A stretch of 64,000 nucleotides of DNA. It comes from Promethearchaeia archaeon (GTDB taxonomy: Archaea > Asgardarchaeota > Lokiarchaeia > Sigyniarchaeales > SOKP01). The translations under genes and the position numbers were made by a program. Of this stretch, positions 4,371-34,724 are shown piece after piece (the first letter of the stretch is position 1; each line of letters starts with the position of its first letter). Where the stretch lies: NCBI GenBank assembly GCA_029856155.1, contig JAHQWL010000092.1:21489-85488 (forward strand), given 5' to 3'. Below the pieces are notes generated by a model. The model made no database searches, was not told the origin of the DNA, and was given only the letters and a program-made list of their open reading frames with translations.

Positions 4371-4386
4371 ACTGTATATATCAAGC
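4371..4386. promoter_or_regulatory. Imperfect copy of the GCTTG-N6-CAAGC operator (ACTGTATATATCAAGC) upstream of MttB-1
   Basis: Right half-site CAAGC is intact; close to the reverse complement of the 27490 site. Confidence 0.5.
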
Positions 4387-4472
4387 ATAATAATTATTAC
4401 TACAATATCTATATTAGATTCAAGAAATCTATCATAAAAAAATAAATAGTAAATTAAAAAAAGGTAATTTAA

Positions 4473-5987
4473 ATGAGAGAAGGCGAAAAAGTCAAATTTC
4501 CTGGTATGAAAAGGATGTGGAGAATATTCACAAAAGAAGAATTGGAAGTAGTAGATAATGCTGCTTATAATATTTTAAGCGAAATGGGTGTTCATATTGA
4601 TGATAAAGAATGTATAGAGTATCTTAAAGAGACTCCAGTTGAGATCGATGAGAAAGAACTCATCGTGAAGTTTCCTGAGTATTGGGTTCGAGAAATGATC
4701 GGTCGTGCCCCAAGAACTTATTTACTTGCGGGAAGAGATCCAAAAAGAGATTTACATGTGACAAGCCCTCAAAGAGACTTTTATGCTTTAATTACAAGCG
4801 GATCTACAAAATATTATGAATGGGATGATACTGCTAATAAATGGATTTCTAAAATACCTGGGGAGGAAGAAGTGATAAAAGCATTTAAAATGGTCGATGG
4901 TTTAGACCAATATGAAGGATTTTTTGGTACACTTCTGGAAGATGTTAAAAAAACACAACAAGGTCTTCCTGCGGAACTTCACACTTTATATAATAAAATG
5001 AAATATTCAACTAAATTTGGAGGGCCTACTGCTATTACGGAAGGAGGTCTTGCTGAATGGGATTATGTAGGAAAGCTAGCCGCTGAAGTTCAAGGTGGTT
5101 TCGATGAATTGACAAAACGTCCCATAATCGCAGGATTACCAACATGCATCGGGCCTTTGACAAGCACTCGGCAGAATTTCTGGGCAGCTGTAGGAAGTGC
5201 AAAGTATCATTTACCTACATTCCCATATTGGGGAGGGATTTCCCCATTTACTGCTCCAGCAACAGCACTTGGACAAGTTGTACTAGCTGTTGCTTGTTGT
5301 CACTATGCCATGGCAGTCTCTCAATATCTTGATCCTGGGACAGCCACTTGTCCATGGCCGATGTGTACATCAACTGATCCTAATACTGGTCAATTAGCAG
5401 GTATTCCTTCAGCTAGATACGTTCATGCAATGGGAATGCAACTTTATCAAGATCTATATAATCTTGTAGTTTCGCAGTGTTCTTATTGTTTAACAACTTC
5501 TCTAGATGAAGCTGCTACTGCATGGTTATCTTCAGTTTCAACTAATACTTTGCTAGGGGGAAATATAGTACAATTTGGAACAACACCCCAAGCATTTATG
5601 TTTGAAACAATACCAATAGGAGCAACCCTTTTGGATTTGGTTAGAGGGTCACTTTTTGCACAGAATGAATTTATTTCCAGATTTGATGATGAACATCTCG
5701 CTTTGGATGTGATCAAAGAAGTAGGGCCAAAGGGTATGTTTACCACCCATCCACATACATTAAAATGGATAGATCCTGCAAAAGGATTATATTGGCGCGC
5801 AAAAGATTGGATTCATGAACATGCTGATCAATGGCTTGCTAAAGGTGCAAAAAGTTGGGTATATGACACCTGTCGACAGCGTTTAAAAGAGTTGGAAAAG
5901 CACGAACCAGAACCAATAGCAAAAGATGTAGATGAGCGTTGTAATGCTTTATTAAAACAAGCAGATGAAGAACTGGCACTCTTTTAA
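4473..5987 (+). CDS. Trimethylamine methyltransferase (MttB) superfamily, non-pyrrolysine, copy 1
   Basis: N-term 'AAYNILSEMGV...VKFPEYWVREMIGRAP..YLLAGRDPKRDL'; C-term 'LALDVIKEVGPKGMFTTHPHT'; no in-frame TAG. Confidence 0.85.
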   Translation: MREGEKVKFPGMKRMWRIFTKEELEVVDNAAYNILSEMGVHIDDKECIEYLKETPVEIDEKELIVKFPEYWVREMIGRAPRTYLLAGRDPKRDLHVTSPQRDFYALITSGSTKYYEWDDTANKWISKIPGEEEVIKAFKMVDGLDQYEGFFGTLLEDVKKTQQGLPAELHTLYNKMKYSTKFGGPTAITEGGLAEWDYVGKLAAEVQGGFDELTKRPIIAGLPTCIGPLTSTRQNFWAAVGSAKYHLPTFPYWGGISPFTAPATALGQVVLAVACCHYAMAVSQYLDPGTATCPWPMCTSTDPNTGQLAGIPSARYVHAMGMQLYQDLYNLVVSQCSYCLTTSLDEAATAWLSSVSTNTLLGGNIVQFGTTPQAFMFETIPIGATLLDLVRGSLFAQNEFISRFDDEHLALDVIKEVGPKGMFTTHPHTLKWIDPAKGLYWRAKDWIHEHADQWLAKGAKSWVYDTCRQRLKELEKHEPEPIAKDVDERCNALLKQADEELALF

Positions 5988-6109
5988 TGAGTGAATAATT
6001 TAATATAATTTCTATTTTTTTTATTGATTTTCCTTTTTTTTAAATAGATTTAACCTTTAAAACAAGTATAAATTTTATTTAATACACCATAAAAGAGAAT
6101 ATAAATAAT

Positions 6110-6125
6110 GCTTGAAATAGCAAGC
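6110..6125. promoter_or_regulatory. Palindromic operator GCTTGAAATAGCAAGC
   Basis: Perfect GCTTG-N6-CAAGC (extends to TGCTTG..CAAGCA) upstream of the small B12-binding gene. Confidence 0.75.
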
Positions 6126-6223
6126 AAATAATATTTATGGTATTTCTTCCAATCGTCCTCTAATGTCATAGGAAATTAGATATTTCTAAATTTAAAATAC
6201 ATACTTATTTTAATTCTTTAAAT

Positions 6224-6604
6224 ATGGAAAAAATAGACATTATAATAGGAAATGTAAAAGACGAGATCCATAACATTGCAAAGACTATACTTGTGAAAGA
6301 GATTGAAAAAATTGGTCTTAACGCATTGGATTTAGGAATTTCAGTTCCAGTCGAAAAGTTTGTCGAGAAAATTAAGGAAACAGATGTAAAAATATTGGTA
6401 CTTACTGGATTACTCAACTCTGCCCCAGAGTACATGAGGCAAATTAGTAAAAAGCTTCGAGAGGAAGGGATAAGAGATGATGTGAAAATTCTTATCGGTG
6501 GACCTAATGTTAACGAAGATTGGTTGAAAAGATCAGAAGCAGATGCTTTTGCGAATAATATTTCAGAGGGAATCAAAATATTATGTTCTTGGAAAGATAG
6601 GTAG
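6224..6604 (+). CDS. Stand-alone cobalamin-binding domain protein (no four-helix cap)
   Basis: Degenerate DxHxxG ('DEIHNIA'), 'DLGISVPVEKFV', 'ILIGG', 'ADAFANN'. Confidence 0.8.
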   Translation: MEKIDIIIGNVKDEIHNIAKTILVKEIEKIGLNALDLGISVPVEKFVEKIKETDVKILVLTGLLNSAPEYMRQISKKLREEGIRDDVKILIGGPNVNEDWLKRSEADAFANNISEGIKILCSWKDR

Positions 6605-6663
6605 TTTTTCCTAAAAACTAAATTAAAATTTTGTTTTATTATTTTTCAATAAAGATGAGATTA

Positions 6664-7308
6664 TCATTTAAATATTGAATTAAATATTGTTTTTTCTATT
6701 TTTCTAATATGCTCGGTGATTGCACTTTGAGAAATGCCGAAATGTTCTGCTAAATCTGAGGAATTAATCTTACGGGGTATTTCAAAATATCCATTCTCTA
6801 CTGCGTAATATATTATTTCTTTTTGACGCTCAGTTAATAACAGAGAAAGATGTTTCGCATCTGGAACAATTGTAGAGATGTTAAGTATTTTAAAATCATT
6901 TCCATATCTATTTACTTGATCTTCTATGAGTTGATCAATGGTATCAACATCAGCTATCATAGACGTGATTAATTGATTGCCTTCCTTAATTAAAGGCGGT
7001 TCTATCAAGATATTAAGGTTTGAGAATAGTTGTTTCATCTCATCGACCCACTGATGTTTAATAATACAAACATACTCTTTTTTATTTTTATCTTCTGCTA
7101 TAACTTCTATATAATCAATTCCAAATTGGCCCTCTAGCTCTTTAGGATGAAAATTAGGGTCTTTAAATTTAAGCTTATTAGTACCATACATCATATTTTC
7201 GCTTAATCGATGAACTTGAACTAATTCATAACCATCAAGTAAATCGAATAATTCTTTATATTCATCCGGAAGAGGAGCTTTATATACAAGCTTTTTTAGT
7301 CGTTTCAT
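6664..7308 (-). CDS. HTH-10 (Bat-like) archaeal transcriptional regulator, copy 1
   Basis: C-term 'LTERQKEII..AVENGYFEIPRKINSSDLAEHFGISQSAITEHIRKIE'. Confidence 0.88.
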   Translation of the reverse strand: MKRLKKLVYKAPLPDEYKELFDLLDGYELVQVHRLSENMMYGTNKLKFKDPNFHPKELEGQFGIDYIEVIAEDKNKKEYVCIIKHQWVDEMKQLFSNLNILIEPPLIKEGNQLITSMIADVDTIDQLIEDQVNRYGNDFKILNISTIVPDAKHLSLLLTERQKEIIYYAVENGYFEIPRKINSSDLAEHFGISQSAITEHIRKIEKTIFNSIFK

Positions 7309-7347: not shown

Positions 7348-7363
7348 GCTTGTGTTCGCAAGC
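7348..7363. promoter_or_regulatory. Palindromic operator GCTTGTGTTCGCAAGC
   Basis: Perfect consensus in the divergent intergenic region between HTH-10 and MttB-2. Confidence 0.75.
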
Positions 7364-7436: not shown

Positions 7437-8960
7437 ATGATTATTATTAGAGAAGGAGAAAAAGTAAAATTTCCAAGTTATGATAAATTACTACGGCTAG
7501 CAACAGAAGAACAATTAAAACTTTTTGATTCGGCAGCTTATAGAATTCTGAGTGAAATGGGTGTGCATATTGATGATAAGGAAGCTATCGAGTATTTTAA
7601 AGATACTCCCGTCGAAATTGATGAGAAAGAGCTCATTTTTAGATTTCCTGAGTACTGGGTTCGGGAAATGATCGCAAAGGCGCCATCTTCATACGTTCTT
7701 GCGGGTCGTAATCCCAAAAATGATTTACCAATTACAGGTCCCAAAAGAGATTATTATATCTTACCTGCAGCAGGAGCAACGAAACAATACAAATGGAATG
7801 AATCGTTAGATCAATGGGAATCTAGTATAACTGATTTCAACGATGTATATGAAAGTACTAAGATGATGGATGCAATTGATACGTATGAAGGACTATCTAA
7901 TAGTATAGTTGAAGATGTCAAATCTTCTCATGCAGGACTTCCAGCAGAACTACATGCTGCGTACGCAAAGTGGAAAGGAACATCTAAATTCATAGGACCA
8001 ATTGCTATAACAGAAGGGGGTACTGCTGAATGGGATTATCTTGCACAGATGGCAGCGGAAGTTCAAGGTGGTTATGATGAGTTTCGAAAACGCCCCATAA
8101 TAGGCTGTTTACCTACAGCTATTGGACCATTGACTTCTACACGACAGAATTTTTGGGCAATGGTGGGAGGAGCAAAACATCATATACCTAGCTTTCCATA
8201 TTGGGGGGGCACAGCTCCATTCACTGCACCTGCAACTCCAGCGTCACAAATAGCTTTATCACTGGCATGTACTCATTATGGAATTGCCGTGTCGCAATAT
8301 TTGTCTCCTGGAACAGCTGCACTGCCCTGGGTAATATGTACAGCAGTTGATCCGAATTCCGGACAACTAGCTCAAGCTCCAATGTTTTTACTAACTCATG
8401 GAATTGGAAATCAAGTGTACCAAGATTTATATGGTATTGCTACATTTGGATGTGCCCATGCCTTAAATGGTTCCTTAGAAGAAGTTGCTACTGGCTGGAT
8501 GACAAATCTACTTACATTGACTCTTATGGGTTTGAATGTTCTTCAATTTGGAGGCCCTCCAAATGCATTTATGTGGGAAGCCTTACCGATGGGTGAATCA
8601 ATCGTTAATTATGTAAAACAATTTTTATTCAATATGAATAATAGCTTATTTCCTGAGGATGAGGATGCCTTGTCACTTAAAACAATTCTGGAAGTGGGAC
8701 CAAAAGGAAGATTTGCTACTCATCCACATACCTTAAAATATATTGATCCCAAGAAGGGATTATATTGGTATTCTAAAGATTGGATTCATGAACATTCGGA
8801 TCAGTGGTTAGCAAAAGGAGGAAAACGTTGGGCATATGACACTTGTAGAGAACGATTGAAAGAGTTGGCAAAGCACGAACCTGAACCTTTAGGAAAGGAT
8901 GTTGAGGAACGACTTCAGTCAATATTGAAAGAAGCAGATGAGGAATTAGCATTATTCTAA
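7437..8960 (+). CDS. MttB superfamily methyltransferase, non-pyrrolysine, copy 2
   Basis: Clear paralog of 4473..5987 (shared 'GLPAELH', 'GPLTSTRQNFWA', 'FPYWGG', 'DWIHEH'). Confidence 0.85.
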   Translation: MIIIREGEKVKFPSYDKLLRLATEEQLKLFDSAAYRILSEMGVHIDDKEAIEYFKDTPVEIDEKELIFRFPEYWVREMIAKAPSSYVLAGRNPKNDLPITGPKRDYYILPAAGATKQYKWNESLDQWESSITDFNDVYESTKMMDAIDTYEGLSNSIVEDVKSSHAGLPAELHAAYAKWKGTSKFIGPIAITEGGTAEWDYLAQMAAEVQGGYDEFRKRPIIGCLPTAIGPLTSTRQNFWAMVGGAKHHIPSFPYWGGTAPFTAPATPASQIALSLACTHYGIAVSQYLSPGTAALPWVICTAVDPNSGQLAQAPMFLLTHGIGNQVYQDLYGIATFGCAHALNGSLEEVATGWMTNLLTLTLMGLNVLQFGGPPNAFMWEALPMGESIVNYVKQFLFNMNNSLFPEDEDALSLKTILEVGPKGRFATHPHTLKYIDPKKGLYWYSKDWIHEHSDQWLAKGGKRWAYDTCRERLKELAKHEPEPLGKDVEERLQSILKEADEELALF

Positions 8961-8977: not shown

Positions 8978-9646
8978 ATGGCAAGTAAAGAAGAAATCAT
9001 TAATGGAATGAAAGACGCTATTATAACCTACAATAAAGCACAATGTTTAGAGCTCGCCAAGCAAGGGATTGCAGAAAAAGTAAAATCTTTAGAATTAATA
9101 CAAGAAGGACTAACTCCTGCAATACAGGAACTCGGAGAGAAATTCGGAAGAGGTGAGATTGCTCTTCCATATCTCATGGTGGGCGCAGAAGCTATGCAAG
9201 AAGCTCTTAATTACATCTTGGAAACCATGCCTAAAGGAGAATATAAACCGAAAGCAAAAATGGTACTCGGGACCGTAAAAGGAGATATTCATGATTTAGG
9301 AATTAGTATCGTAGAAGCTGTGTTTCAAGCTAATGGAATCCAAGTGTATAATCTCGGTCGCGATAATCCCAAAGAAAAGTTTGTGGAAAAGGCAGAAGCT
9401 GAAGAGGCAGACATTATCGGTACGTCAGCCTTGCTCACAGGTACTATGTTCGAGCAGAAAGTTGTTATCGAATATTTAAAGAAGCAAGGACTCCGAGACA
9501 AATATATCTATCTGATTGGAGGAGGTGCTTGTCCTTCCAGCGAATGGTGTGATGAGATCGGTGCAGATGGATGGGCTACTGATGTTATGCTCGGGCTCGA
9601 TGCTGCTAAAAAAGCTTTAGCAGAAAAGAAGGGAATAGAAATTTAA
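8978..9646 (+). CDS. Corrinoid protein (MttC/MtgC-like; cap plus B12-binding domain), copy 1
   Basis: 'GTVKGDIHDLG' (DxHxxG), 'IIGTSALLT', 'IGGG', 'IGADG'; GAGGTGA RBS. Confidence 0.92.
   Translation: MASKEEIINGMKDAIITYNKAQCLELAKQGIAEKVKSLELIQEGLTPAIQELGEKFGRGEIALPYLMVGAEAMQEALNYILETMPKGEYKPKAKMVLGTVKGDIHDLGISIVEAVFQANGIQVYNLGRDNPKEKFVEKAEAEEADIIGTSALLTGTMFEQKVVIEYLKKQGLRDKYIYLIGGGACPSSEWCDEIGADGWATDVMLGLDAAKKALAEKKGIEI
9233..9330 (+). repeat. 98-bp exact direct repeat, second copy at 14760-14857, inside the duplicated corrinoid genes
   Basis: Manual alignment at offset 5527. Confidence 0.85.
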
Positions 9647-9699: not shown

Positions 9700-10032
9700 A
9701 TGGTTGATGTACAAGAAGGATTTGAATTAATGAAGAAATATTTTAAACCAGAAGTTGCTAAAGAATTTAAGAAGAAAGTGGCTGTTCAATATAATATTAA
9801 AGGTCCAGGTGGAGGTACATGGCAAGTAATCTTTGACAGTGGTAATATGGATATTGTTGAAGGAGAGAAGGAAAATGCTATTCTTAAATTTAACTATGAC
9901 GCTGTAGAGAGCTTTATAGGCATTCAAAAAGGAGAGATTGATGGTATACAAGCATATACTATGGGAAAACTCCAAATCGAGGGCCCTATACCTCTAGCTC
10001 AAAAACTTGCAGACATTTTTAAACGTGAATAG
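9700..10032 (+). CDS. SCP2 sterol/lipid-binding domain protein, copy 1
   Basis: 'VQYNIKGPGGGTW', 'GEIDGIQAYTMGKLQIEGPIPLAQKL' match the SCP2 signature. Confidence 0.85.
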   Translation: MVDVQEGFELMKKYFKPEVAKEFKKKVAVQYNIKGPGGGTWQVIFDSGNMDIVEGEKENAILKFNYDAVESFIGIQKGEIDGIQAYTMGKLQIEGPIPLAQKLADIFKRE

Positions 10033-10197: not shown

Positions 10198-11103
10198 TTA
10201 GTTGATTTTAAATACAGGATGAGTTGGAGGAGGCATCTTACCTTCATCGAACAATAATTGAGAATGAGCAGCTTTAATGAATGCAACGTTAGGATATACT
10301 AAATTTGCTAATTGAATAGGACCATAGAATATGAAGTCTGCTCCCGCTGCTAAAGTAATCGTTGAGGCAACTACTTTTATATATTTTTTGATATGCCCAA
10401 ATTTAGTAACCAAATTTATCCAGGAATCTGCTAAATTTTGTCCTGCAGTTCCAGCAGGATATCCATACTTATTTTTTACTTCGTCAATCGTATTAAGAGC
10501 AATCCCTAAGGATGTAAAGTCAATAATACATGTATCAATTAGAAAGTTATTTTTTTTAAAATTGTAAGACAAAGCTTTTTTTATGAGTTTATCAGTAATT
10601 TCCATTCGAGCTTCAGTTGTCCAGCATTGTGATTCAATAGGAAGAAGAAAAAATGTTTCAATGTCCGTTTGACTTAATAGTTCAAATTCTTCATCATAAG
10701 AAGAGGAGGTAATTGTATTATATACAACCTCTTTATCTAATCCATGTTCAATAAGATAATTTAGCATTGGTTGCTTAACTTCCCAATAAGGGGCGTCCAC
10801 AAGAACGGGAGTATCGGTAACTGAAAAAACAAAATCTAAAATAGGTTGAATTGATTCCTTAAAAGAAAGAATAACATCGAGTAAGGGTATCAAGCCTGTT
10901 TTATCTGCTAACTCCTCTTGCTCTTTAATTAATTTTTCAGCATATTCTTTGTTTATTTGACCTTTTCTCTCATCCCTAAAGATTTTTTTCTGCTTTAAGT
11001 AAAATATAGTACCCGCTAAAGCAGTGGGCACGCTTCTCGGATCTCCACCCACTATATATTTTCCTATCTTGTATGACTTTTGTTCTACGTTATATTTAAA
11101 CAT
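10198..11103 (-). CDS. MtrH/MtgA-like methylcorrinoid:pterin methyltransferase, divergent copy (start corrected to ATG at 11103)
   Basis: 'MFKYNVEQK...GG...PTALAGTIFY'; 301 aa, the same length as its paralog; the longer ORF-track call overlaps the upstream gene. Confidence 0.82.
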   Translation of the reverse strand: MFKYNVEQKSYKIGKYIVGGDPRSVPTALAGTIFYLKQKKIFRDERKGQINKEYAEKLIKEQEELADKTGLIPLLDVILSFKESIQPILDFVFSVTDTPVLVDAPYWEVKQPMLNYLIEHGLDKEVVYNTITSSSYDEEFELLSQTDIETFFLLPIESQCWTTEARMEITDKLIKKALSYNFKKNNFLIDTCIIDFTSLGIALNTIDEVKNKYGYPAGTAGQNLADSWINLVTKFGHIKKYIKVVASTITLAAGADFIFYGPIQLANLVYPNVAFIKAAHSQLLFDEGKMPPPTHPVFKIN

Positions 11104-11131: not shown

Positions 11132-12037
11132 TTATCCAATTTTAAACACTGGATGATTTGTCGGAGCCATTTTTCCTTCATCGAACAATAGTTGTGAATG
11201 CGCAGCTTTGATGAATGCAACATTAGGGTATATGATGTTCGCATGCTGCACAGGACCATATAGTAAAAAGTCAGCTCCCGCTCCTAAAGTAATACTTGAA
11301 GCAACCACTGTCGCGTATTTTTTAATATCGCCAAATTTCGCTTTTAAATTTCTCCACGTATCCACAGCGTTGTGCGCACCAGATCCTACAGGATATCCAT
11401 ATTTATTCTTTACTTCATACATCGCGCTCATTGCTAAACCTAATGATGTAACATCCACAACAGCAGTATCAATTAAGAAGTTATGGTCTGCAAAATTAGC
11501 TTCTGTTGCTTTTTTAACGAGATTACCGATTACGTCCATTCTTGCTTGAGTAGTCCAATTCTTTGATTCCATTCCTAAAAGAATGAAATTTCTGATATTA
11601 CTTTCAGTTAATAAATTATATTCCTCCTCATTGGATTCTGGTGTGAGTGAATTATAAATGATTCTGTCTTGAATCCCCATTTCTTTAACATAGTTTAGTG
11701 CATTTATTTTTACATCTTGCGTTGGTGCATCTAATATAATAGGAACGTCGGTGACATCTACTACAAAATCAAGAATGGGTTTAATAGATGCTTCATAGGA
11801 TAAAATTACATCTAATCCGGGAGTTAAGCCTGTTTTATCTGCCATATCTTCCTGATCTTTAACTAATTTTTCTGCGAAATCCTTGATTATTTCTCCTTTA
11901 GACTCATCCCTAAAAATTCCTTTTTGGCGTAAGTAGAAAATCGTTCCGATTACCGCTGTCGGGACTTCTCTTGTATCTCCACCTATTGTATATTTTCCTA
12001 TATTATAAGATTTTTGCTCGACGTTATATTTGAACAT
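11132..12037 (-). CDS. MtrH/MtgA-like methylcorrinoid:pterin methyltransferase (start corrected to ATG at 12037)
   Basis: 'PTAVIGTIFY', 'IIYNS', 'LIDTAV', 'GYPVGSGAHNA', 'GADFLLYGP'; AGGAG RBS upstream of 12037. Confidence 0.87.
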   Translation of the reverse strand: MFKYNVEQKSYNIGKYTIGGDTREVPTAVIGTIFYLRQKGIFRDESKGEIIKDFAEKLVKDQEDMADKTGLTPGLDVILSYEASIKPILDFVVDVTDVPIILDAPTQDVKINALNYVKEMGIQDRIIYNSLTPESNEEEYNLLTESNIRNFILLGMESKNWTTQARMDVIGNLVKKATEANFADHNFLIDTAVVDVTSLGLAMSAMYEVKNKYGYPVGSGAHNAVDTWRNLKAKFGDIKKYATVVASSITLGAGADFLLYGPVQHANIIYPNVAFIKAAHSQLLFDEGKMAPTNHPVFKIG

Positions 12038-12106: not shown

Positions 12107-12122
12107 GCTTGTTATTTCAAGC
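12107..12122. promoter_or_regulatory. Palindromic operator GCTTGTTATTTCAAGC
   Basis: Reads GCTTGAAATAACAAGC on the minus strand, identical to the 16466 and 25317 sites; upstream of the MtrH pair. Confidence 0.8.
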
Positions 12123-12150: not shown

Positions 12151-12795
12151 TTACTTGAATATAGAAAAAAAAATAGTCCTCTCAATTTTTCGCAAGTGTT
12201 CACAAAATGCACTTTTAGAAATACCAAAATGATTAGCTATAGTTTCAGAATTAGTTTTACGAGGGATATCATAGTATCCGTGTTCCACTGAATAATAAAT
12301 AATCTCTTTTTGTCTTTCTGTTAAGAGTAAATTTAAATTACTCCTATTAGGCTGCACAGAATTGATACTTAAAATTTTGTAGTTATCGCCGTAAATATTT
12401 TTCTGTAAATCAATAATTGTATCGATATTTGCACCAGGTGTAATATAAGTTATGATTAAAGAATCATCTTCCATAATAATCGGAGGTTCAATTAGGATTT
12501 CAGAAACCTTAAAAAAATTGCGAAGTTCCTCATACCAGCGATGCTTAACAAGACAAATAAATTCATTTTTCTGGGTATCTTTTGCTAAAATTTCGATAAA
12601 TTCAATTCCAAATTTATTTTGAAGATTCTTGGGGTTAAAATCTTTATTTTTAAATTTAAATCGCTGAGTCGCATAGATATGAATATCATCAAACCGGTGA
12701 ATTTGAAGTAATTCATATTTTGTTAATAAATCAAAAAAGTCTTGATAACTAGGGTTAATTGGGATTTTGAGGACAATTTTTTTCAATTTTTTCAT
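12151..12795 (-). CDS. HTH-10 (Bat-like) transcriptional regulator, copy 2
   Basis: 'LTERQKEII...GYYDIPRK...IANHFGISKSAFCEHLRKIE'; paralog of 6664..7308. Confidence 0.88.
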   Translation of the reverse strand: MKKLKKIVLKIPINPSYQDFFDLLTKYELLQIHRFDDIHIYATQRFKFKNKDFNPKNLQNKFGIEFIEILAKDTQKNEFICLVKHRWYEELRNFFKVSEILIEPPIIMEDDSLIITYITPGANIDTIIDLQKNIYGDNYKILSINSVQPNRSNLNLLLTERQKEIIYYSVEHGYYDIPRKTNSETIANHFGISKSAFCEHLRKIERTIFFSIFK

Positions 12796-12972: not shown

Positions 12973-14487
12973 ATGAGAGAAGGAGAAAGAGTAAAATATC
13001 CTAAAATGAATCGAATGTGGCGTATCGCATCTAAAGAAGATTTAGAGAGAATCGATAATGCTGCATATCACATTTTAAGTGAAATGGGAGTTTTTATCGA
13101 TGATAAAGATTGTATCGAATACTTAAAAGATACTCCATTAGAAATTGATGAAAAGGAACTCATTGTGAAATTTCCAGAATTTTGGGTACGCGAGATGATC
13201 GCAAAAGCTCCAAAATCATATATACTTGCTGCTAGGGATCCTAATAATGATTTATTACTATCAAGTTACCACGACGATTTTTATAACTTATTTACGAGTG
13301 GTTCGACGAAAATGTATCTTTGGAATGAGCAAACAAATCAATGGGACTCTAGAATTCCCGGTGAAGAAGATGTAATTAGAGGATTTAGGATGATTGATGC
13401 TGTGGATGCTTATGATGGATTTTTTGGTACACCCGTGGAAGATGTGAAACGAACAAATCAAGGGCTTCCCGCTGAGCTTCATACTACCTATAATAAAATG
13501 AAATGGTCTACAAAACATGGTGGAGTATGTGCGATCACCGAAGGAGGATTAAACGAATGGGACTATGTCGGTAAACTTGCCGCTGAAGTTCAAGGTGGAT
13601 TTGATGAGTTAAAAAGACGACCCATAATCGCAGGTTTACCAACCTGCATTGGGCCCATGACTAGTACCCGTCAGAATTTCTGGGCTGCTGTGGGAAGTGC
13701 TAAATATCATTTACCTACAGTACCTTATTGGGGGGGAACGGCACCATTTACAGCACCCGCAACTGCTCCAGCAATGAATGCAATGGCTTTGGCATGTACG
13801 CATTATTGTATAGCTGTTTCACAATATCTCGATCCTGGAACGGCGGCAGTTCCTTGGCCTAATACTTCACCTGTTGATCCACAATCTGGTCAATTAGCGA
13901 TAAATCCAATTGCTACAATGGTACTTGGAATGGGAGGTCAAGTTTATCAAGATTTATATGGTCTTCCTATTGCGGGATGCGCATATTGCTTATCATCATC
14001 TTTAGATGAAGCTGGTGCTACATGGGCATTAAACTTATTAACAGAGTTATTATGGGGAGTGAATGTGCAACAAGTCGGATCCACACCCGGAGCGTTTATG
14101 TGGGAAACGATTCCAATGGGAGAAACATTAGTAAATTATACTAAGCAGTTCTTATTCGAAATGACTGAAGATCTTTTAAATATTGATGAAGAACACTTAG
14201 CTTTAGATGTAATAAAAGAAACTGGTCCTAAAAAAATGTTCACGACTCATCCTCACACTCTAAAATGGATTGATCCCAAGAGGGGGTTATTCTGGCATGC
14301 TAACGACTGGATCCATGAACATTCGGATCAATGGCTTGCGAAGGGAGCTAAAACATGGGTTGAAATTTGTCGTGAACGTTTGAAAGAATTAGATAAACAT
14401 CAACCAGATCCACCAATCCCAAAAGATGTAGATGAACGATGTAATGCACTTTTAAAAGAAGCAGATGAGGAACTCGCATTGTTTTAA
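12973..14487 (+). CDS. MttB superfamily methyltransferase, non-pyrrolysine, copy 3
   Basis: Paralog of copies 1 and 2; no in-frame TAG. Confidence 0.85.
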   Translation: MREGERVKYPKMNRMWRIASKEDLERIDNAAYHILSEMGVFIDDKDCIEYLKDTPLEIDEKELIVKFPEFWVREMIAKAPKSYILAARDPNNDLLLSSYHDDFYNLFTSGSTKMYLWNEQTNQWDSRIPGEEDVIRGFRMIDAVDAYDGFFGTPVEDVKRTNQGLPAELHTTYNKMKWSTKHGGVCAITEGGLNEWDYVGKLAAEVQGGFDELKRRPIIAGLPTCIGPMTSTRQNFWAAVGSAKYHLPTVPYWGGTAPFTAPATAPAMNAMALACTHYCIAVSQYLDPGTAAVPWPNTSPVDPQSGQLAINPIATMVLGMGGQVYQDLYGLPIAGCAYCLSSSLDEAGATWALNLLTELLWGVNVQQVGSTPGAFMWETIPMGETLVNYTKQFLFEMTEDLLNIDEEHLALDVIKETGPKKMFTTHPHTLKWIDPKRGLFWHANDWIHEHSDQWLAKGAKTWVEICRERLKELDKHQPDPPIPKDVDERCNALLKEADEELALF

Positions 14488-14504: not shown

Positions 14505-15173
14505 ATGACAAGTAAAGAAGAAATAATTAATGGAATGAAAGATGCTATTATAACCTATAACAAGGCAAAATGCTTGGAACTCGCTAAGCAAGGAATAACC
14601 GAAAAAGTAAACTCTTTAGAATTAATACAAGAAGGATTAACTCCCGCGATACAGGAACTCGGAGAGAAATTCGGGAGAGGCGAAATTGCTCTTCCATACC
14701 TCATGGTGGGCGCGGAAGCGATGCAGGATGCATTAAACTACATCTTAGAAACCATGCCAAAAGGAGAATATAAACCGAAAGCAAAAATGGTACTCGGGAC
14801 CGTAAAAGGAGATATTCATGATTTAGGAATTAGTATCGTAGAAGCTGTGTTTCAAGCGAATGGAATTCAAGTGTATAATCTCGGTCGCGATAATCCCAAA
14901 GAAAAGTTTGTGGAAAAGGCAGAATTAGAAGAAGCAGATATTATTGGCACATCCGCTTTGCTCACAGGCACCATGTTCGAACAGAAAGTTGTTATTGAAT
15001 ACTTGAAAAAGCAAGGCCTTCGAGACAAGTATATCTACTTGATCGGAGGAGGAGCATGTCCTTCTAGTGAATGGTGCGATGAGATTGGTGCTGATGGATG
15101 GGCTACCGATGTGATGCTCGGACTTGATGCTGCTAAGAAATCATTGGCAGAAAAGAAAGGAATCGAACTTTAA
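14505..15173 (+). CDS. Corrinoid protein (MttC/MtgC-like), copy 2
   Basis: 8 aa differences in 222 from 8978..9646 by manual count; DxHxxG intact. Confidence 0.92.
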   Translation: MTSKEEIINGMKDAIITYNKAKCLELAKQGITEKVNSLELIQEGLTPAIQELGEKFGRGEIALPYLMVGAEAMQDALNYILETMPKGEYKPKAKMVLGTVKGDIHDLGISIVEAVFQANGIQVYNLGRDNPKEKFVEKAELEEADIIGTSALLTGTMFEQKVVIEYLKKQGLRDKYIYLIGGGACPSSEWCDEIGADGWATDVMLGLDAAKKSLAEKKGIEL

Positions 15174-15237: not shown

Positions 15238-15570
15238 ATGGTTAATGCACAAGAAGGATTTGAAATAATGAAGAAGAACTTCAAACCAGAAGTTGCCAAG
15301 GAGTTTAAGAAACGAGTGGTTGTTCAATATAATATAGAAGGTCCTGGTGGTGGGACATGGCAAGTTAGTTTTGATAATGGCAAAATAGAAATTGTAGAAG
15401 GAGAGAAAGAAAAAGCCGTTCTAAAATTTAATTATGATTGCATAGAGAGTTTTGTTGGGATCCAAACAGGAGAAGTGGATGGCATTCAAGCATACACAAC
15501 GGCCAAATTACGAATTGAAGGACCCATTGCCCTTGCTCAACAAATCGGAAAGATTTTTGGCGCTGTTTAA
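15238..15570 (+). CDS. SCP2 sterol/lipid-binding domain protein, copy 2
   Basis: Paralog of 9700..10032. Confidence 0.85.
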   Translation: MVNAQEGFEIMKKNFKPEVAKEFKKRVVVQYNIEGPGGGTWQVSFDNGKIEIVEGEKEKAVLKFNYDCIESFVGIQTGEVDGIQAYTTAKLRIEGPIALAQQIGKIFGAV

Positions 15571-15603: not shown

Positions 15604-16377
15604 GTGTTAAAAGATAAAGTTGCTGTAATAACTGGTGGAGCACAAGGGATTGGACATGCTATCGCAACAAAATTTGCTGAAGCTGGTGCTAACATCGCTA
15701 TAATTGATATAAAAGATTCATCAAAAATAGTTGATAAAGTAAAAAACTATGGAGTAGATGTGATTGCTTTCAATGCTGATGTGTCTGATGAGGATGCAAT
15801 GAAAAGTGCATTCGATAAAATCATAGAAAAATGGGATAAAATAGACATTCTAGTGAATAATGCAGGAATTTATCCATTAGAGCGCTTTACTGATATTCCA
15901 ATAGCTTTAGTTAAAAAAGTTTTTGATACCAATGTTATCGGAACCTACATCTGCAGTCAGATTGCCGCAAATATATTCATTTCTAACTCAATTGAAGGTA
16001 TAATTCTTAATATGGCTTCGGCAGCAGGAATTACTCCCGATAAATATCATTTACATTATGCTGCATCCAAAGCTGCTATAATTTCATTAACAAAAGGAAT
16101 GGCAATGGAATTGATAAACGACAAAATACGAGTTAATGCAATCGCACCTGGAGCAGTTGCTACAGAAGGAGCAAGAAACCCTGGACTTTTTGAAAAGTCT
16201 GGTAAAATTCCAGATAAATTTATGGAAATGCAAATGAAAAAATTTTCTCCTTTAGCCAAATCTGGGATGGGAGAACCAATGGATATTGCTAATATGGCAT
16301 TATATCTCGTTTCGGAACAAGCTAAATATATCACGGGAACAATTATTTCGGTAGATGGAGGACGACTTTTATTATAA
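15604..16377 (+). CDS. Short-chain dehydrogenase/reductase (classical SDR, probably NAD-dependent)
   Basis: GTG start; 'TGGAQGIG', 'NNAG', 'YAASK', 'VNAIAPG'; Asp at the end of beta2 ('IIDI'). Confidence 0.9.
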   Translation: MLKDKVAVITGGAQGIGHAIATKFAEAGANIAIIDIKDSSKIVDKVKNYGVDVIAFNADVSDEDAMKSAFDKIIEKWDKIDILVNNAGIYPLERFTDIPIALVKKVFDTNVIGTYICSQIAANIFISNSIEGIILNMASAAGITPDKYHLHYAASKAAIISLTKGMAMELINDKIRVNAIAPGAVATEGARNPGLFEKSGKIPDKFMEMQMKKFSPLAKSGMGEPMDIANMALYLVSEQAKYITGTIISVDGGRLLL

Positions 16378-16465: not shown

Positions 16466-16481
16466 GCTTGAAATAACAAGC
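16466..16481. promoter_or_regulatory. Palindromic operator GCTTGAAATAACAAGC
   Basis: Perfect consensus (extends to TTGCTTG..CAAGCAA) upstream of the RACo gene. Confidence 0.8.
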
Positions 16482-25316: not shown

Positions 25317-25332
25317 GCTTGAAATAACAAGC
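25317..25332. promoter_or_regulatory. Palindromic operator GCTTGAAATAACAAGC
   Basis: Perfect consensus (extends to TAGCTTG..CAAGCTA) upstream of the third SCP2-like gene. Confidence 0.8.
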
Positions 25333-25404: not shown

Positions 25405-25830
25405 ATGAGTGAAGAAAAGAGTAGGAATTTAGAAGGATTTGCTCACATGATTTATAATCAATTTGAAAGACCCTTAAAGGACAATCAAAAATTTAAAGAG
25501 AAATATAAGGATGCCAAATTGAAAATATTTTTAAATATAACCGATGCAACTCATGCAGCTTTATTAACGATAGATAAAGGAGCCATAACTGTAAATGGAA
25601 TTCTGCAAACAGATAAAGAGGGATTAATTAAAGCTGCTGAAGATGTTGACGCTCTAATTAAAACCGATATGAATACTTTTGTTTCGATGGAGAATATGTC
25701 CACCCTAAAAACAATAGGGAAGATTTTTGGGGGAAAACTTAAAATTAAGGGTGGGAAGAATTTAAGAATACTTCAGGATTTAAGAAAGTTAGCTACAGAA
25801 GCAGATGCGGATGTTAGTGAGTTTTTTTAA
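25405..25830 (+). CDS. SCP2-like lipid-binding domain protein, copy 3 (divergent)
   Basis: 'LTIDKGAITV...DALIKTDMNTF...GKLKIKGG'; GAGG RBS. Confidence 0.68.
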   Translation: MSEEKSRNLEGFAHMIYNQFERPLKDNQKFKEKYKDAKLKIFLNITDATHAALLTIDKGAITVNGILQTDKEGLIKAAEDVDALIKTDMNTFVSMENMSTLKTIGKIFGGKLKIKGGKNLRILQDLRKLATEADADVSEFF

Positions 25831-25939: not shown

Positions 25940-27253
25940 TTGTTTTCAAATATAGAGAGGTATAGATGCTTGGAGGATCTTAACATACAACAGCTTGAAA
26001 AGCAGTACTTTAGTGGTAAGGTAAGCAAGAAATCCATTGTTGATAAACTCATTTTAAAAATAGAATATAATAATGAAGTCTCTATTAGAATTAAAAGTTT
26101 AGAAACATTAAGTAAATTAAATCTATTATCTGATATGCATTTTGATTATTTAGAAAATCTAGCTATAGCTGATTTGAATGATCAAATTAGATCTATAGCA
26201 ATAAAAACTATTATAGACCAGTTCTATGATAAAGCGGACTTTTTAATAAATTGGATTGTTTATTTTGAGAATTCACCTTTTCTATTAAATGTGGCTATTA
26301 ATTCATTGATTAAGATTGACGAGCAATACTTAAAATATCTTTTATCAGAATCCATAACAAAAAAAATATCTGAAAAATCAAACAAGACAGATGAACTATT
26401 CAAGAAAGAATTAAAAAACTTATTTAACGAAAAACCACCAAATATGCTCCCAATTGATCAACTTACACAAATATTCCTTAATTTCTGTTTTATTTTAAAC
26501 AATGAAAAAAAATATCTTTTTTCTGAAAATCTAAACACTTCATCACTTATGTATAAACTTGAAGAGGGATGTATTACTGAATTAAGAGTGTGGGGTCTAA
26601 AAATTATTAAAGTCAGTGATCTTGAAGGTATCAATTTATTAACAGAATTGCAGATCCTTGATCTATCTGGGAATAATTTAAAGGAAATTGATGGGTTGAT
26701 AAATCTTTCCAAATTAAAATTGCTAAAATTTGGTGATTTAAGTTATGATACTGGTAATCAAATAAGTGAGATTAAAGGTCTTAATTCCTTGCCTAATCTT
26801 AAGATTCTCAACCTATCAAATAATTTTATTAAGCAAATCAAAGGTATTGATAATTTAAAAAATTTGGAATATTTGTATTTAGTTAATAATTCTATTTCAG
26901 AGATACAAGATATTGAAAATCTTGAAAAACTGAGATATTTGAATCTTGAGAAAAATAATATCTCTAAAATTGAAAATATTGAAATCTTATCTAATTTAGA
27001 AACAATTGTATTAAACGACAATAATATAAAAGTATTAGAAAACGTCGGAACCCTGAATAAGCTCAGAGAAATAAGGATTAGTAGGAATCCACTTTCCGAG
27101 ATAGAAGTTAAGCCTAGTTTAAATAATATCTGTTTAAAGCTTCATACATCAGAAATAGAACGATTATCCAAGTTAAATGGAATTGACTCATTTACAATCA
27201 AAGCTATTGGAGATGAAAAACCTAACGAATATACTACTCGTTATCAACAATAA
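25940..27253 (+). CDS. Leucine-rich repeat protein (SDS22-like LRRs) with N-terminal HEAT-like helices
   Basis: Repeats of 'LxxLxLxxNxIxxIxxL' (e.g. 'LKILNLSNNFIKQIKGIDNL'). Confidence 0.85.
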   Translation: MFSNIERYRCLEDLNIQQLEKQYFSGKVSKKSIVDKLILKIEYNNEVSIRIKSLETLSKLNLLSDMHFDYLENLAIADLNDQIRSIAIKTIIDQFYDKADFLINWIVYFENSPFLLNVAINSLIKIDEQYLKYLLSESITKKISEKSNKTDELFKKELKNLFNEKPPNMLPIDQLTQIFLNFCFILNNEKKYLFSENLNTSSLMYKLEEGCITELRVWGLKIIKVSDLEGINLLTELQILDLSGNNLKEIDGLINLSKLKLLKFGDLSYDTGNQISEIKGLNSLPNLKILNLSNNFIKQIKGIDNLKNLEYLYLVNNSISEIQDIENLEKLRYLNLEKNNISKIENIEILSNLETIVLNDNNIKVLENVGTLNKLREIRISRNPLSEIEVKPSLNNICLKLHTSEIERLSKLNGIDSFTIKAIGDEKPNEYTTRYQQ

Positions 27254-31473: not shown

Positions 31474-32121
31474 TTAACTGAATATTGTGTGATAAATTAT
31501 TTTTTCTATTTTCCGCAAATGTTCATATAATGCACTCCGAGAAATTTTAAAATGATTCGCGATTTTCTTTGAATTGATTCTACGAGGTATTTCAAAATAT
31601 CCATGCTGAATAGCGTAATACACAATTTCTTTCTGACGGTCTGTTAATTTTAAAAAAAGATTTTCATAGTTAACTTTTATGTTAGATATGCTTAGAATCT
31701 CCAATTTTCCTTCATAAAAGTGATTTAAGGAATTAACGAATTCATCAATATTTTTACTTTCTGTTATAATACTTACTAAAAGACGATCTTTATCTAGAAT
31801 AATAGGAGGATCGATAATCAGATCTAGTTTATCGAGGAATTCTTTCGTTTCCTTAACCCAGTTATGCTTAGAAAAGAAAATGTATTCTTTATTCCCCCTA
31901 TCCTCATTTATCACTTCTATATATGACATCCCATAATGTTCGCCTTCCAACATTTTCGGATGCATTTTAGGATCCTTGAATTTTACCTTCTGTGTTGCAA
32001 AGATTTGATCCTCGTCTTGACGGTGTATTTGGAGTAATTCATATTTTTCCAATAGGTCAAAGAATTCCTTAGACTTTGGATCTAAAGGTATTTTCAGAAC
32101 AATCTTTTTTAATTGCTTCAT
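31474..32121 (-). CDS. HTH-10 (Bat-like) transcriptional regulator, copy 3
   Basis: 'LTDRQKEIV..AIQHGYFEIPRR...ISRSALYEHLRKIE'; paralog of the other two. Confidence 0.88.
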   Translation of the reverse strand: MKQLKKIVLKIPLDPKSKEFFDLLEKYELLQIHRQDEDQIFATQKVKFKDPKMHPKMLEGEHYGMSYIEVINEDRGNKEYIFFSKHNWVKETKEFLDKLDLIIDPPIILDKDRLLVSIITESKNIDEFVNSLNHFYEGKLEILSISNIKVNYENLFLKLTDRQKEIVYYAIQHGYFEIPRRINSKKIANHFKISRSALYEHLRKIEKIIYHTIFS

Positions 32122-32152
32122 TTGTTAGTATAAATATTAACAGATTTAGATA

Positions 32153-32168
32153 ACTTGAATTTTCAAGC
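32153..32168. promoter_or_regulatory. Operator ACTTGAATTTTCAAGC (one mismatch)
   Basis: Lies in the divergent intergenic region between HTH-10 and the hydrolase; an extra CAAGC half-site at 32260-32264. Confidence 0.68.
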
Positions 32169-32318
32169 TTAAGATTATTATATAAATAAAAATTCTCTTT
32201 TAATTAGCTTTATGGTATATTACCATAAGTTAGATTAAAATGGATTTAAAAATTAATATCAAGCACTTTTCATAATTAAAAAAAAAATAACTAAATAAAA
32301 AAAAATAGGTGTATTATT

Positions 32319-34724
32319 ATAAACGCAAAAGAGTCTTCTGAATTAAGCGATCCTCTTTTCACCGAGCCATATATAGATATTGATGAGTGGCGGGACGATC
32401 CCGCACGCCATCGATACGTTCATGGTGGTTTTAAAGGCACCGATGCCAGATTTTCGTTCTATTTCCCACCGAAGGAGCAATATGAAGGCCGGTTCTTCCA
32501 ATATATTATGCCGATGTCTGGGGATGAGAATCAAGCACAGCACCCATCTTACCCAGATCCCCCCTACGCATTAAGCTTTATCTTCGAGAGTGGCGGCTAT
32601 TTAGTGGAATCTAACCTAGGGCGGCTGGATATGTTCCCAGGGGATGATCCCACCATCGCCGGATATCGGACCAGTGTGGCAGTAGCGAAATATTCGCGCG
32701 TTTTGGCTTCTGAAATGTATGGTCCCCACCGCTCCTATGGTTATGCTTGGGGCGGTAGCGGTGGAGGATATAAGACAATAAGTTGTATAGAAACCACAGT
32801 TGGTGTCTGGGACGGCGTGGTGCCATTTATTCACGCAACACCGATGGCTATGATCAATGTATTCTCGGTACAGGCTCATGCAATGCGCGTGTTAAAAGAT
32901 AAAATGCCAGCCATCATCGATGCAGTAGAACCTGGTGGTAGCGGAGATATGTATACTGATCTAAATGAAGAGGAACGAGAGGCGCTTACCGAAGTGACTA
33001 AGATGGGATTTCCGCCACGAGCTTGGTTCAATTACAGGAGAATAGCGTTCGGCTACACCGGAGTCTTAACTACACTCCTTGATCCAATGATTAAATGGGA
33101 TCCCACGTACTTTGAGGATTTTTGGAAGGAACCGGGCTACCTTGGTGCGAATCCGCCCCAATCGCTCTTAGACGCCCGGATTAAACACGATACAACCATA
33201 AGCAAGCTTATTATGCCCGAAGATATCAAGAAAATGGGAGGGGCATTGTCTATATCTGCCGGGCAAGCTGGTAACGTAGTCCCAGCAGGGTTTGTATTAG
33301 AAAGCGTGCCTGAAGGGGACATACAGGGAGCTTCAATATTCTTGAAAAGTGGTGAAGCAGAGGGTTGCGTAGTTTACGCTGTTGCAGCATTCGATAACAT
33401 GGTAATGCTAGCCTATGGCGAAGAAAACTACCAGTTTTTGGCAGCTGTCAAGGTGGGTGATGAAGTGCAGATCGACAACTCTAATTATCTCGCTACTCAA
33501 ACCTATCATCGCCATCAGGTTCCGTCACCTGATTATTATGTCTGGAACCAGTTCCGGGGCATTGATGGTAAACCGTTGTATCCGCAACGACCCGAGATAC
33601 TGGGGCCGCGTCATGCGTATCAAGGCGCTGGTTCGGTCCAGACGGGCAAGTTTGAGGGCAAGATGATCGTAGTAGAAATGTTAATGGACGAGGCTGCCTA
33701 TCCTTGGCAAGCCGACTGGTATCGCTCGAAGGTGAAAGTCGCATTGGGAGGAAAATTCGATGATAACTATCGGCTCTGGTTCATTGACAATGCAATGCAT
33801 ACACCACCGGTGATCACACCGTTAGACTCCCATCCAGCAATAACCACCCGAGTTATTAACTATAGTGGTGTATTACAACAGGCACTGCGCGATGTGAGTG
33901 CATGGGTTGAAAAAGGCGTAGCACCCCCTGCAAGTACTACATATAAAGTGGTAGATGGCCAAGTGGAAGTGCCACCGACTGCTACGGAGCGTAAGGGAGT
34001 TCAACCAGTGGTCACTGTTACAGTAAACGGAGGTGAGCGTGCAGATGTCAAGGTCGGGAAGAAACTTAAGTTTTCCGCGGTTATCGAAACACCACCGGAT
34101 GCCGGTTCGGTAGTTGGTGTGGAATGGGATTTCGAGGGCGCTGGTGACTATCCAATCACCGAGCATCTAAAAAACACCAAAAGCAATCATGTAGAGGTGA
34201 AAACCACTTATACTTTCTCCGAGAGTAGCACTTACTTTCCGGCGATTCGTGTAACCTCGCAAAGACAGGGCGACCCTCAAACTCGTCATGCACGAATCCA
34301 GAACATCGGTCGCGTGAGGGTCGTGGTAAGTGGTAAAGAAAAACAAAAACAAGAACCTGAAGGTAAAGAATTAATATTAGACTTAAAAGAGAAACCCGCC
34401 GATTTTCAAAAAATAGTAAACAAGTTCTTTGATGCAATCGGACAACATACTACTGTAGTTCAGGGAAGAGAGATTTCAACCAATGAGATTGGACCAAGAA
34501 CTGAACGTTCCACAAAATTCGAAGTTGTTCCTTCAGCTGGTGAAACTTTTTATACCATAAGTTTTGAAGATACAGAGTCTGGTATTGGCGTTTTTGTTGA
34601 AATAGATATTACAGTCTCGGGAGCCTATAAAATGATGGCAAAAATGATAAAAAAAATGACATCAAAATCGATTAAAGAAAATGCGATAGAAACTCTCAAT
34701 AAAATTTTAAAAGAAAATGAATGA
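32319..34724 (+). CDS. Tannase/feruloyl-esterase-like alpha/beta hydrolase with PKD-like domain and C-terminal SRPBCC/START-like extension; probable ATA/ATT start
   Basis: Frame is open from 32295 and encodes 'DPLFTEPYIDIDEWR...HRYVHGGFKGTDARFSFYFPP' upstream of the first ATG (32508); nucleophile elbow 'GGSGGG'; 'EWDFEGAG' PKD-like motif. Confidence 0.65.
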   Translation: MNAKESSELSDPLFTEPYIDIDEWRDDPARHRYVHGGFKGTDARFSFYFPPKEQYEGRFFQYIMPMSGDENQAQHPSYPDPPYALSFIFESGGYLVESNLGRLDMFPGDDPTIAGYRTSVAVAKYSRVLASEMYGPHRSYGYAWGGSGGGYKTISCIETTVGVWDGVVPFIHATPMAMINVFSVQAHAMRVLKDKMPAIIDAVEPGGSGDMYTDLNEEEREALTEVTKMGFPPRAWFNYRRIAFGYTGVLTTLLDPMIKWDPTYFEDFWKEPGYLGANPPQSLLDARIKHDTTISKLIMPEDIKKMGGALSISAGQAGNVVPAGFVLESVPEGDIQGASIFLKSGEAEGCVVYAVAAFDNMVMLAYGEENYQFLAAVKVGDEVQIDNSNYLATQTYHRHQVPSPDYYVWNQFRGIDGKPLYPQRPEILGPRHAYQGAGSVQTGKFEGKMIVVEMLMDEAAYPWQADWYRSKVKVALGGKFDDNYRLWFIDNAMHTPPVITPLDSHPAITTRVINYSGVLQQALRDVSAWVEKGVAPPASTTYKVVDGQVEVPPTATERKGVQPVVTVTVNGGERADVKVGKKLKFSAVIETPPDAGSVVGVEWDFEGAGDYPITEHLKNTKSNHVEVKTTYTFSESSTYFPAIRVTSQRQGDPQTRHARIQNIGRVRVVVSGKEKQKQEPEGKELILDLKEKPADFQKIVNKFFDAIGQHTTVVQGREISTNEIGPRTERSTKFEVVPSAGETFYTISFEDTESGIGVFVEIDITVSGAYKMMAKMIKKMTSKSIKENAIETLNKILKENE

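Follow-up and report, generated by a model that had tools for sequence, protein, structure and literature searches.

A deep clade of non-pyrrolysine MttB proteins linked to SCP2 and a degenerate chaperonin in a Lokiarchaeial corrinoid methyl-transfer cluster

The window analysed here is a 64,000-nucleotide stretch of contig C92 (GenBank JAHQWL010000092.1, positions 21,489 to 85,488) from the 4.1 Mb draft genome of a Promethearchaeia archaeon (assembly GCA_029856155.1; 97% complete, 30% GC). Within it lies a cluster that combines three methyltransferases of the MttB family with corrinoid proteins and SCP2 lipid-binding-type proteins (Table 1). The cluster is a four-component corrinoid system with an enzyme from the MttB superfamily, and it is not of the MtgB, pyrrolysine-containing (Pyl-) MttB or Emt/Abe kind. 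Its MttB proteins are a deep clade of their own, distinct from MtgB, a link to SCP2 is conserved in and specific to this clade, and a degenerate group II chaperonin is co-inherited with it. We assign the core methyl-transfer function with high confidence. For the pathway as a whole we propose that a bulky, non-acidic substrate of poor solubility is brought forward by SCP2 and demethylated in an inducible, cobalamin-dependent way, a pterin receiving the methyl group; we judge the chances of this proposal to be evenly balanced.

Results

Components of the cluster

An earlier note on this DNA, made from the sequence alone, had proposed a co-regulated corrinoid methyl-transfer system, and all four of its components are encoded together in the cluster: a methyltransferase 1 (MT1), a corrinoid protein with the DxHxxG motif, a methyltransferase 2 (MT2) and a reductive activator. 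The three non-Pyl MttB paralogs claimed by that note each match PF06253 at 95–111 bits (cut-off 25), contain no internal stop codon and end in TAA, and they are 60–69% identical to one another. Both cassettes of an HTH_10 gene divergent from MttB, corrinoid protein and SCP2 were found as claimed, together with the RACo activator, the SDR and the two MtrH-like genes, which lie on the minus strand and are 63% identical to each other. SCP2a and SCP2b are about 75% identical, score 43 bits against PF02036, and have human SCP2 as their best match in the PDB. The third SCP2 gene is present, but at 17 bits its product falls short of the Pfam cut-off of 21.3, and in the Atlas SCP2 is a lead only.

Contigs from four independent studies cover positions 4000–23000, and the cassette duplication is therefore not an assembly artefact. 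One contig from sequencing run X1 bridges the MttB3 side to the SCP2a side (positions 9233 and 14759) via the 96% identical corrinoid genes; its junction comprises 98 shared bases and may stem from the assembly graph or from genuine recombination of the two cassettes. The sequencing runs that contain the stretch are marine-sediment and salt-marsh metagenomes, and no RNA data sets were listed among the matching runs. The closest relatives of the window proteins carry the names Lokiarchaeota/Promethearchaeota and Helarchaeota.

The MttB proteins form a separate clade

A database search with MttB returned 28 proteins at 47–94% identity, followed by matches at 27–28%. Phylogenetic placement, a check suggested in the earlier note, was carried out with 155 sequences that included 29 clade members and 12 MtgB relatives and left out MtpB, MtcB, MtyB and MthB. 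The 29 members were monophyletic and did not nest with MtgB, to which they are 19–23% identical; the two groups formed separate clades, each with support of 1.0. The sister of the MttB clade is a group from Jordarchaeia (33–36% identity), and both are far from the 12 MtgB relatives, while the common Lokiarchaeal MttB (17 sequences) is the sister group of MtgB. The structural model (pLDDT 87) is an MttB-type TIM barrel with a C-terminal arm, and it aligns with 7xcl, 9yce, 2qne and 4yyc at Z 44–45 over 460–473 residues (19–22% identity), compared with Z 24 for MtmB.

Identity as Pyl-MttB, the trimethylamine methyltransferase, was rejected: the position of pyrrolysine in M. barkeri MttB is occupied by Ala or Cys in the window MttBs, there is no in-frame TAG, and scores against the Pyl-MttB profile TIGR02369 are 144–159 bits versus 525. 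Among 400 Asgard genomes, to which all distribution counts below refer, the core clade occurs in eight and the sister form in another eight; the clade was found in none of the 53 other genomes of the source genus. Uncharacterised non-Pyl MttBs have been reported from Asgard archaea, with quaternary amines presumed as substrates (PMC11291895).

Other MttB homologues were seen in different company. A fourth MttB of the source genome (L084; G000:C98:43251-46259) is unrelated, at 16–17% identity, and is accompanied by a corrinoid protein and a homocysteine-methyltransferase-like gene. In remoter relatives of the MttB clade (L066:10001-13362 and L103:10001-16644), MtrH and HTH_10 give way to a UroD/MtaA-like MT2 together with an MFS transporter and a TetR regulator.

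The acid-binding residues of MtgB are missing from the clade

In MtgB, the substrate carboxylate is held by R312 and H348 and the ammonium group by Y97 and F356, and R312 is retained in every functionally known non-Pyl MttB (MtgB, MtpB, MtcB, MtyB and MthB) (PMC13080624). Alignment revealed that R312 is replaced by S, A, C, T, F or V, H348 by Q, M or S, and Y97 by S or A in 29/29 clade members. R312 is retained in the 17 MttBs of the common Lokiarchaeal type, the sister group of MtgB. The residue equivalent to F356 is an invariant F378 according to HMMER or P375 according to MAFFT, and the loop is about four residues shorter in the clade. With R312, H348 and Y97 gone and the clade separate, identity as MtgB (glycine betaine methyltransferase) was rejected.

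The barrel strands of the clade are nearly devoid of Arg and Lys (0.03 per protein vs 1.0 in MtgB) and hold about twice as many aromatic residues (8.8 vs 4.7), which supports, at the level of sequence, a pocket that is uncharged and probably larger. An aromatic motif, PY(W/F)GG, is invariant, and the three paralogs diverge at strand positions 1, 6 and 7. Because the acid-binding R312 and H348 are gone from every member, acid-bearing substrates with betaine-, carnitine- or choline-type heads are disfavoured, and with them the acyl-carnitine and betaine-lipid candidates of the earlier note. In a first alternative, which keeps to the kind of substrate that the earlier note had in mind, MttB would take the N-methyl off a whole zwitterionic lipid (phosphatidylcholine, a betaine lipid or acyl-carnitine) brought by SCP2, loss of the arginine having opened a channel for the tail. 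Such a reaction would agree with the conserved SCP2 link and with the N-demethylase activity of every characterised MttB-family enzyme, and PY(W/F)GG could bind the cation. We nevertheless consider it unlikely, as no basic residue on the barrel strands substitutes for the lost arginine and histidine, MthB rejects phosphatidylcholine and glycerophosphocholine (PMC12155760), the module has no conserved gene for a lipase or for choline, and the hydrolase of the cluster is a passenger.

SCP2 genes accompany clade MttBs and not other Lokiarchaeal MttBs

Sixteen other non-redundant loci, from Lokiarchaeia and Helarchaeota, extend far enough for gene order to be compared. An SCP2 gene lies one or two genes after the clade MttB in all 16, despite reshuffled gene order, whereas none was found within 1.5 kb in 26 other Lokiarchaeal MttB loci; the SCP2 linkage on which the earlier note had built its case thus recurs outside the window. 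SCP2s from the module group together (support 0.88), separate from the remaining SCP2s of the genome. Several loci carry two or three SCP2 copies, and in L033 a fusion of a flavin adenine dinucleotide (FAD) oxidoreductase with SCP2 lies immediately upstream of MttB. Of the farther relatives, L066 again has an SCP2 and L103 does not.

Copies within a genome are, across genomes, 61–68% identical for MttB, 93–99% for the corrinoid protein and 73–95% for SCP2. SCP2 identity follows that of the corrinoid protein (rho 0.73) slightly better than that of MttB (rho 0.61), which would suit a second alternative, in which the methyl donor is small and soluble (an uncharged amine, a methyl sulfide or a methoxy-aromatic) and the corrinoid machinery relies on SCP2 and the chaperonin as general aids to maturation or as scaffolds. 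The sister clade, which retains MttB, corrinoid protein, RACo, MtrH and chaperonin without SCP2, points the same way. However, most of the 26 ordinary MttB loci that lack SCP2 have a corrinoid gene, indicating that corrinoid proteins generally need no SCP2, and extra SCP2 copies, the oxidoreductase–SCP2 fusion and SDRs recur in the module. A soluble donor therefore seems to us improbable.

A degenerate chaperonin and other members of the module

The chaperonin gene starts 50 bp after RACo, beneath a perfect operator palindrome. Its product shares the fold of the archaeal thermosome (TM score 0.75–0.80 at about 30% identity) but differs from it in that NDG is changed to QKG and GDGTTT to GDGTKT. 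Core-clade chaperonins have also lost the second catalytic aspartate, and where the thermosome has its GGM tail there is a charged helix of 40 residues. Unlike the thermosome, it is nearly confined to carriers of the MttB clade among the genomes searched. Profile searches found it in 14/400 genomes; 16 genomes have the MttB clade or the sister form, and 13 of the 14 belong to these. In one more carrier the gene is cut by a contig end, and two carriers whose MttB lies on 3 kb contigs are without it; the single genome with the chaperonin only has an MttB-like fragment at a contig end. The chaperonin is more constant over the wider MttB family than SCP2. The chaperonin of L066 is an ordinary thermosome and was left out of the count. 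A Jordarchaeia-group genome (L137/L139; G181:C348) contains a frame of 1072 residues with two chaperonin domains, at least one of which has GDGTKT.

At least seven other loci have an orthologue of the LRR protein within the module or next to it; the chaperonin and the LRR protein are thus conserved members that were absent from the earlier gene list. The SDR is present in most module loci and absent from some. Its PDB matches (FabG and hydroxysteroid, sorbitol and glucose dehydrogenases) were non-specific and too mixed for a substrate to be assigned from them. The hydrolase, which the earlier note had counted as a unit of the system, is indeed present, but it has no homologue at any other locus and its GC content is 46% compared with 30% for the genome, so we regard it as a passenger. 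Its START-like tail is a lead only (Atlas score 0.86–0.88), and no meaningful PDB match was obtained for the protein. Before the ATG of the hydrolase, 70 codons or more remain open in frame (32298-32508), a segment that resembles the true N-terminus and is without an ATG, GTG or TTG start; the gene may be a recent import and possibly damaged.

A shared operator palindrome

The earlier note had also described one palindrome shared by most units of the cluster. GCTTG-N6-CAAGC has six matches in the window at no more than one mismatch, where 0.94 would be expected by chance, and the genome holds five perfect copies, all intergenic and all inside the window. With a matrix trained on other genomes only, the sites at 16466, 25317, 12107, 6110, 32153 and 7348 rank 1–5 and 7 genome-wide. 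The palindrome is therefore real, but its reach is narrower than had been supposed: the site at 4371 before MttB1 is degenerate and weak, and the matrix scan found none before the MttB3–corrinoid–SCP2–SDR operon in the source genome. The promoters of orthologous MttB3 operons in L035, L048 and L052 carry perfect palindromes. Other spacer lengths gave 0–2 matches each, nearly all within genes.

The HTH_10 proteins are predicted, from their position, to be the readers of the palindrome, and the site at 32153 is probably autoregulatory for HTH_10 regulator 3. At four distant loci (L031:9841, L033:9604, L040:9892 and L059:9893) a variant site, RCCTCAC-N3-(T/A)CAAGCA, occurs about 70–120 bp before the MttB start with the right palindrome half retained. 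At L155:11039-14598 (G194), a trio of the 2-hydroxyacyl-CoA dehydratase type (two HGD-D genes and an activator) points away from RACo, with a palindrome between them, and towards the module SDR.

Neighbouring genes

The VWA protein and a 787-residue protein without a Pfam match (20399-25286), which have paralogs on C75 and C53, follow the chaperonin here, in L063 and in L155; their place in L060 is taken by an AAA ATPase and a VWA protein. Genes for methyl-accepting chemotaxis proteins lie inside the module in L060 (1640-9278, three genes) and L033 (5758-7461). Immediately upstream of the cluster, at 1120-4248, are genes whose translations resemble a two-subunit ATP-citrate lyase. An ABC-permease-like gene at 27600-29378 looks frameshifted or broken, its upstream part lying in other frames with a stop (around 27650-27950), and an isocitrate/isopropylmalate dehydrogenase-family gene at 29580-30773, although within the interval given by the earlier note, has neither a palindrome nor a link to the module.

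Table 1. Genes and operator sites of the cluster, in window coordinates.
Feature	Position	Strand	Basis or remark
Degenerate operator palindrome, before MttB1	4371..4386	.	Matrix score 11.4, genome rank 54
MttB1, non-Pyl MttB of new clade (MT1)	4473..5987	+	PF06253; tree
Operator palindrome GCTTG-N6-CAAGC	6110..6125	.	Perfect match; matrix scan
Stand-alone B12-binding domain without cap	6224..6604	+	His kept, DxHxxG degenerate; present in L037 too
HTH_10 regulator 1 (HTH1)	6664..7308	-	PF04967
Operator palindrome, between HTH1 and MttB2	7348..7363	.	Perfect match
MttB2 (MT1)	7437..8960	+	MttB fold, Z ~45 to MttB and MtgB, 19–22% identity
Corrinoid protein 1	8978..9646	+	DIHDLG motif
SCP2a, module-specific SCP2 lipid-binding-type protein	9700..10032	+	PF02036 above cut-off; module clade
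MtrH/MtgA-like MT2, copy 1	10198..11103	-	Profile match
MtrH/MtgA-like MT2, copy 2	11132..12037	-	Aligns with MtgA; conserved Asp/Asn positions retained
Operator palindrome, before mtrH pair	12107..12122	.	Perfect match
HTH_10 regulator 2	12151..12795	-	51% identical to HTH1
MttB3 (MT1), most widely conserved orthologue	12973..14487	+	PF06253; locus comparison
Corrinoid protein 2	14505..15173	+	96% identical to copy 1
SCP2b	15238..15570	+	PF02036
Classical SDR, frequent module member	15604..16377	+	Profile; locus comparison
Operator palindrome, before RACo–chaperonin	16466..16481	.	Perfect match
RACo reductive activator of corrinoids	16571..18475	+	Profile match
Degenerate group II chaperonin, co-inherited with MttB clade	18526..20265	+	TQKG and GDGTKT; lacks second catalytic Asp; C-terminal helix added
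VWA protein, accessory or neighbour	20399..22921	+	Linked in just two other loci
Operator palindrome, before SCP2c–LRR	25317..25332	.	Perfect match; equivalent position in L046 and L048
SCP2c, divergent SCP2-like, separate lineage	25405..25830	+	Part of regulon in several Lokiarchaeia
LRR protein	25940..27253	+	Orthologues 43–56% identical
HTH_10 regulator 3 (HTH3)	31474..32121	-	Profile; sequence comparison
Operator palindrome, one mismatch	32153..32168	.	32 bp before HTH3
Tannase-like hydrolase with SRPBCC/START-like tail	32508..34724	+	GC-rich passenger, not a conserved member

Discussion

Proposed pathway

In the proposed demethylation, the HTH_10 regulators would act through the observed GCTTG-N6-CAAGC sites. 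The substrate would be a lipid-, isoprenoid- or polycyclic-type molecule bearing an N-, O- or S-methyl group, which SCP2, judging from its family and the UbiJ precedent, may ferry in the cytosol and present to MttB. MttB, whose pocket in the alignment is without the acid clamp and the bulky residues of MtgB, would then methylate the Co(I) corrinoid protein. From what is known of their families, MtgA and MtoA included, the MtrH-like proteins would hand the methyl group to a pterin, probably tetrahydromethanopterin, for the Wood-Ljungdahl pathway, in line with the ACS, Mtd and MetF genes of the genome, and RACo would return the cobalt to its reduced state. The SDR may oxidise or reduce the substrate or the product, and the degenerate chaperonin could be a pathway-private folding or assembly helper. 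As for the three MttB paralogs, their pocket positions have drifted apart, in contrast to the near-identical copies of the corrinoid protein and SCP2, and it is likely that the paralogs handle related substrates or successive methyl groups. The family history favours N as the methyl position, but the SDR and the absent acid clamp leave O about as likely. A more specific version, in which a soluble complex built with its own hydrolysis-impaired chaperonin has SCP2 deliver an insoluble methylated lipid or isoprenoid to this new class of MttB, is put forward tentatively, and we would sooner expect it to fail than to hold.

Several observations weigh against demethylation of an SCP2-presented substrate. 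No SCP2 was found in the Jordarchaeia sister loci, the nearest copy in G175 and G177 being at least 37 kb away, even though R312 is missing from this sister clade too; the wider family can thus do without SCP2. There is no SCP2 that belongs to MttB1, and SCP2 domains also serve as structural or regulatory modules. The pocket hydrophobicity that the earlier note had proposed to examine showed no increase when judged by mean barrel-strand hydropathy, which is 0.59 in the clade and 0.76 in MtgB, the clade strands being uncharged and aromatic. Neither set of MttB loci is fully independent, since the loci are kin. Finally, CdhC, Mtd and two MetF genes were found in the genome, but no Mer above the cut-off, and the fate of the methyl group is only partly traced.

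The apparent lack of Mer would also suit the reverse direction, in which methyl-pterin methylates an SCP2-borne lipid or isoprenoid for biosynthesis, tailoring or an Emt-like activation of degradation. Corrinoid methyl transfers are reversible, Emt methylates a steroid, and UbiJ provides a precedent for SCP2 in biosynthetic methylation. Characterised MtrH/MtgA-type proteins in such clusters, however, deliver methyl groups to pterins, and the patchy distribution (8/400 genomes, 1/54 in the genus), the expansion of paralogs, the dedicated regulators and the chemoreceptors beside the module in L033 and L060 suit catabolism better; it is from these features that we infer a catabolic direction, and the chemoreceptor genes also fit an external substrate. 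We regard the reverse reaction as distinctly unlikely.

Comparison with known systems

The cluster resembles MtgABC with RamA of Desulfitobacterium hafniense and MtpB, MtcB, MtyB and MthB of Eubacterium limosum in having a non-Pyl MT1 of MttB fold, a corrinoid protein, an activator and an MT2 in a single cluster, and MtgA is an MtrH-like corrinoid:pterin MT2, as in the Asgard cluster (PMC13080624). It departs from MtgABC in the separate deep clade of its MT1, which lacks R312, H348 and Y97, and in the addition of SCP2, the SDR, the degenerate chaperonin, the LRR protein and HTH_10 control; the arginine equivalent to R312 in the four Eubacterium enzymes is likewise missing from the clade MttBs. 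Among archaea, MtoB is not an MttB-family protein but is of the MtvB/UroD type. The O-demethylase to which it belongs, MtoABCD of Methermicoccus shengliensis, likewise uses a corrinoid protein, an activator and an MtrH-like MT2 that passes the methyl group to a pterin and not to CoM (PMC8630106), but no lipid carrier comparable to the SCP2 of the cluster has been described for it.

Cobalamin-dependent methyl transfer on a hydrophobic substrate is carried out by EmtABCD of Denitratisoma and AbeABC of Phosphitispora TUW77, the latter supplying the Wood-Ljungdahl pathway (PMC11912376; 10.1101/714501). SCP2 is mentioned in neither paper. The earlier note had cited Emt as a precedent, and an AbeABC-like C-19 demethylation of steroids, from androgen to estrogen, would share the three-part logic of Abe and find some encouragement in SCP2 and in the hydroxysteroid dehydrogenases among the SDR matches. 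But the SDR matches are non-specific, and AbeA and EmtA are MtmB-like, whereas the clade enzyme is folded like MttB (Z about 45, compared with 24 for MtmB). Abe also requires a 3-ketosteroid Delta1-dehydrogenase, and a search of the 97% complete draft at E ≤ 1e-20 gave no PF00890 protein; the PF00890 proteins in four other carrier genomes (drafts) are NadB or SdhA. Steroid demethylation of this kind is thus very improbable.

A parallel for SCP2 is the Ubi complex of Escherichia coli, in which the SCP2 domains of UbiJ and UbiT bind insoluble intermediates and are proposed to present them to soluble enzymes (PMC8854274). That pathway is biosynthetic and S-adenosylmethionine-dependent, and the likeness to the module SCP2 is an analogy that rests on the SCP2 fold. 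The non-Pyl MttB homologues of Freyarchaeia and Atabeyarchaeia are described as an uncharacterised group near mtrH; in the accessible part of that account the present clade is not separated, and SCP2, the chaperonin and the operator are not mentioned (PMC11291895). Literature on lipid substrates of MttB, corrinoid–chaperonin clusters, Asgard SCP2 and Asgard chaperonins, in a survey that covered few subscription papers, contained no description of the module.

Significance

The core chemistry of MT1, corrinoid protein, MT2 and activator is already well known. Most proteins of the MttB superfamily, however, are without a known substrate, and every characterised non-Pyl member has a small, acidic quaternary amine as its substrate. 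A clade that lacks the shared acid-binding arginine and has a fixed lipid-carrier partner offers a small, testable set of genes for a different chemistry. It is also an example, from the prokaryotic lineage nearest to eukaryotes, of SCP2 and a degenerate group II chaperonin being devoted to a single pathway. The finding bears on the diet of Lokiarchaeia and Helarchaeia in anoxic sediments and on the oxygen-free demethylation of insoluble organic matter. If the more specific version, with its soluble complex and dedicated chaperonin, is correct, this would be the first MttB-family enzyme to act on a lipophilic or non-amine substrate, and it would connect sedimentary lipids to the Wood-Ljungdahl pathway.

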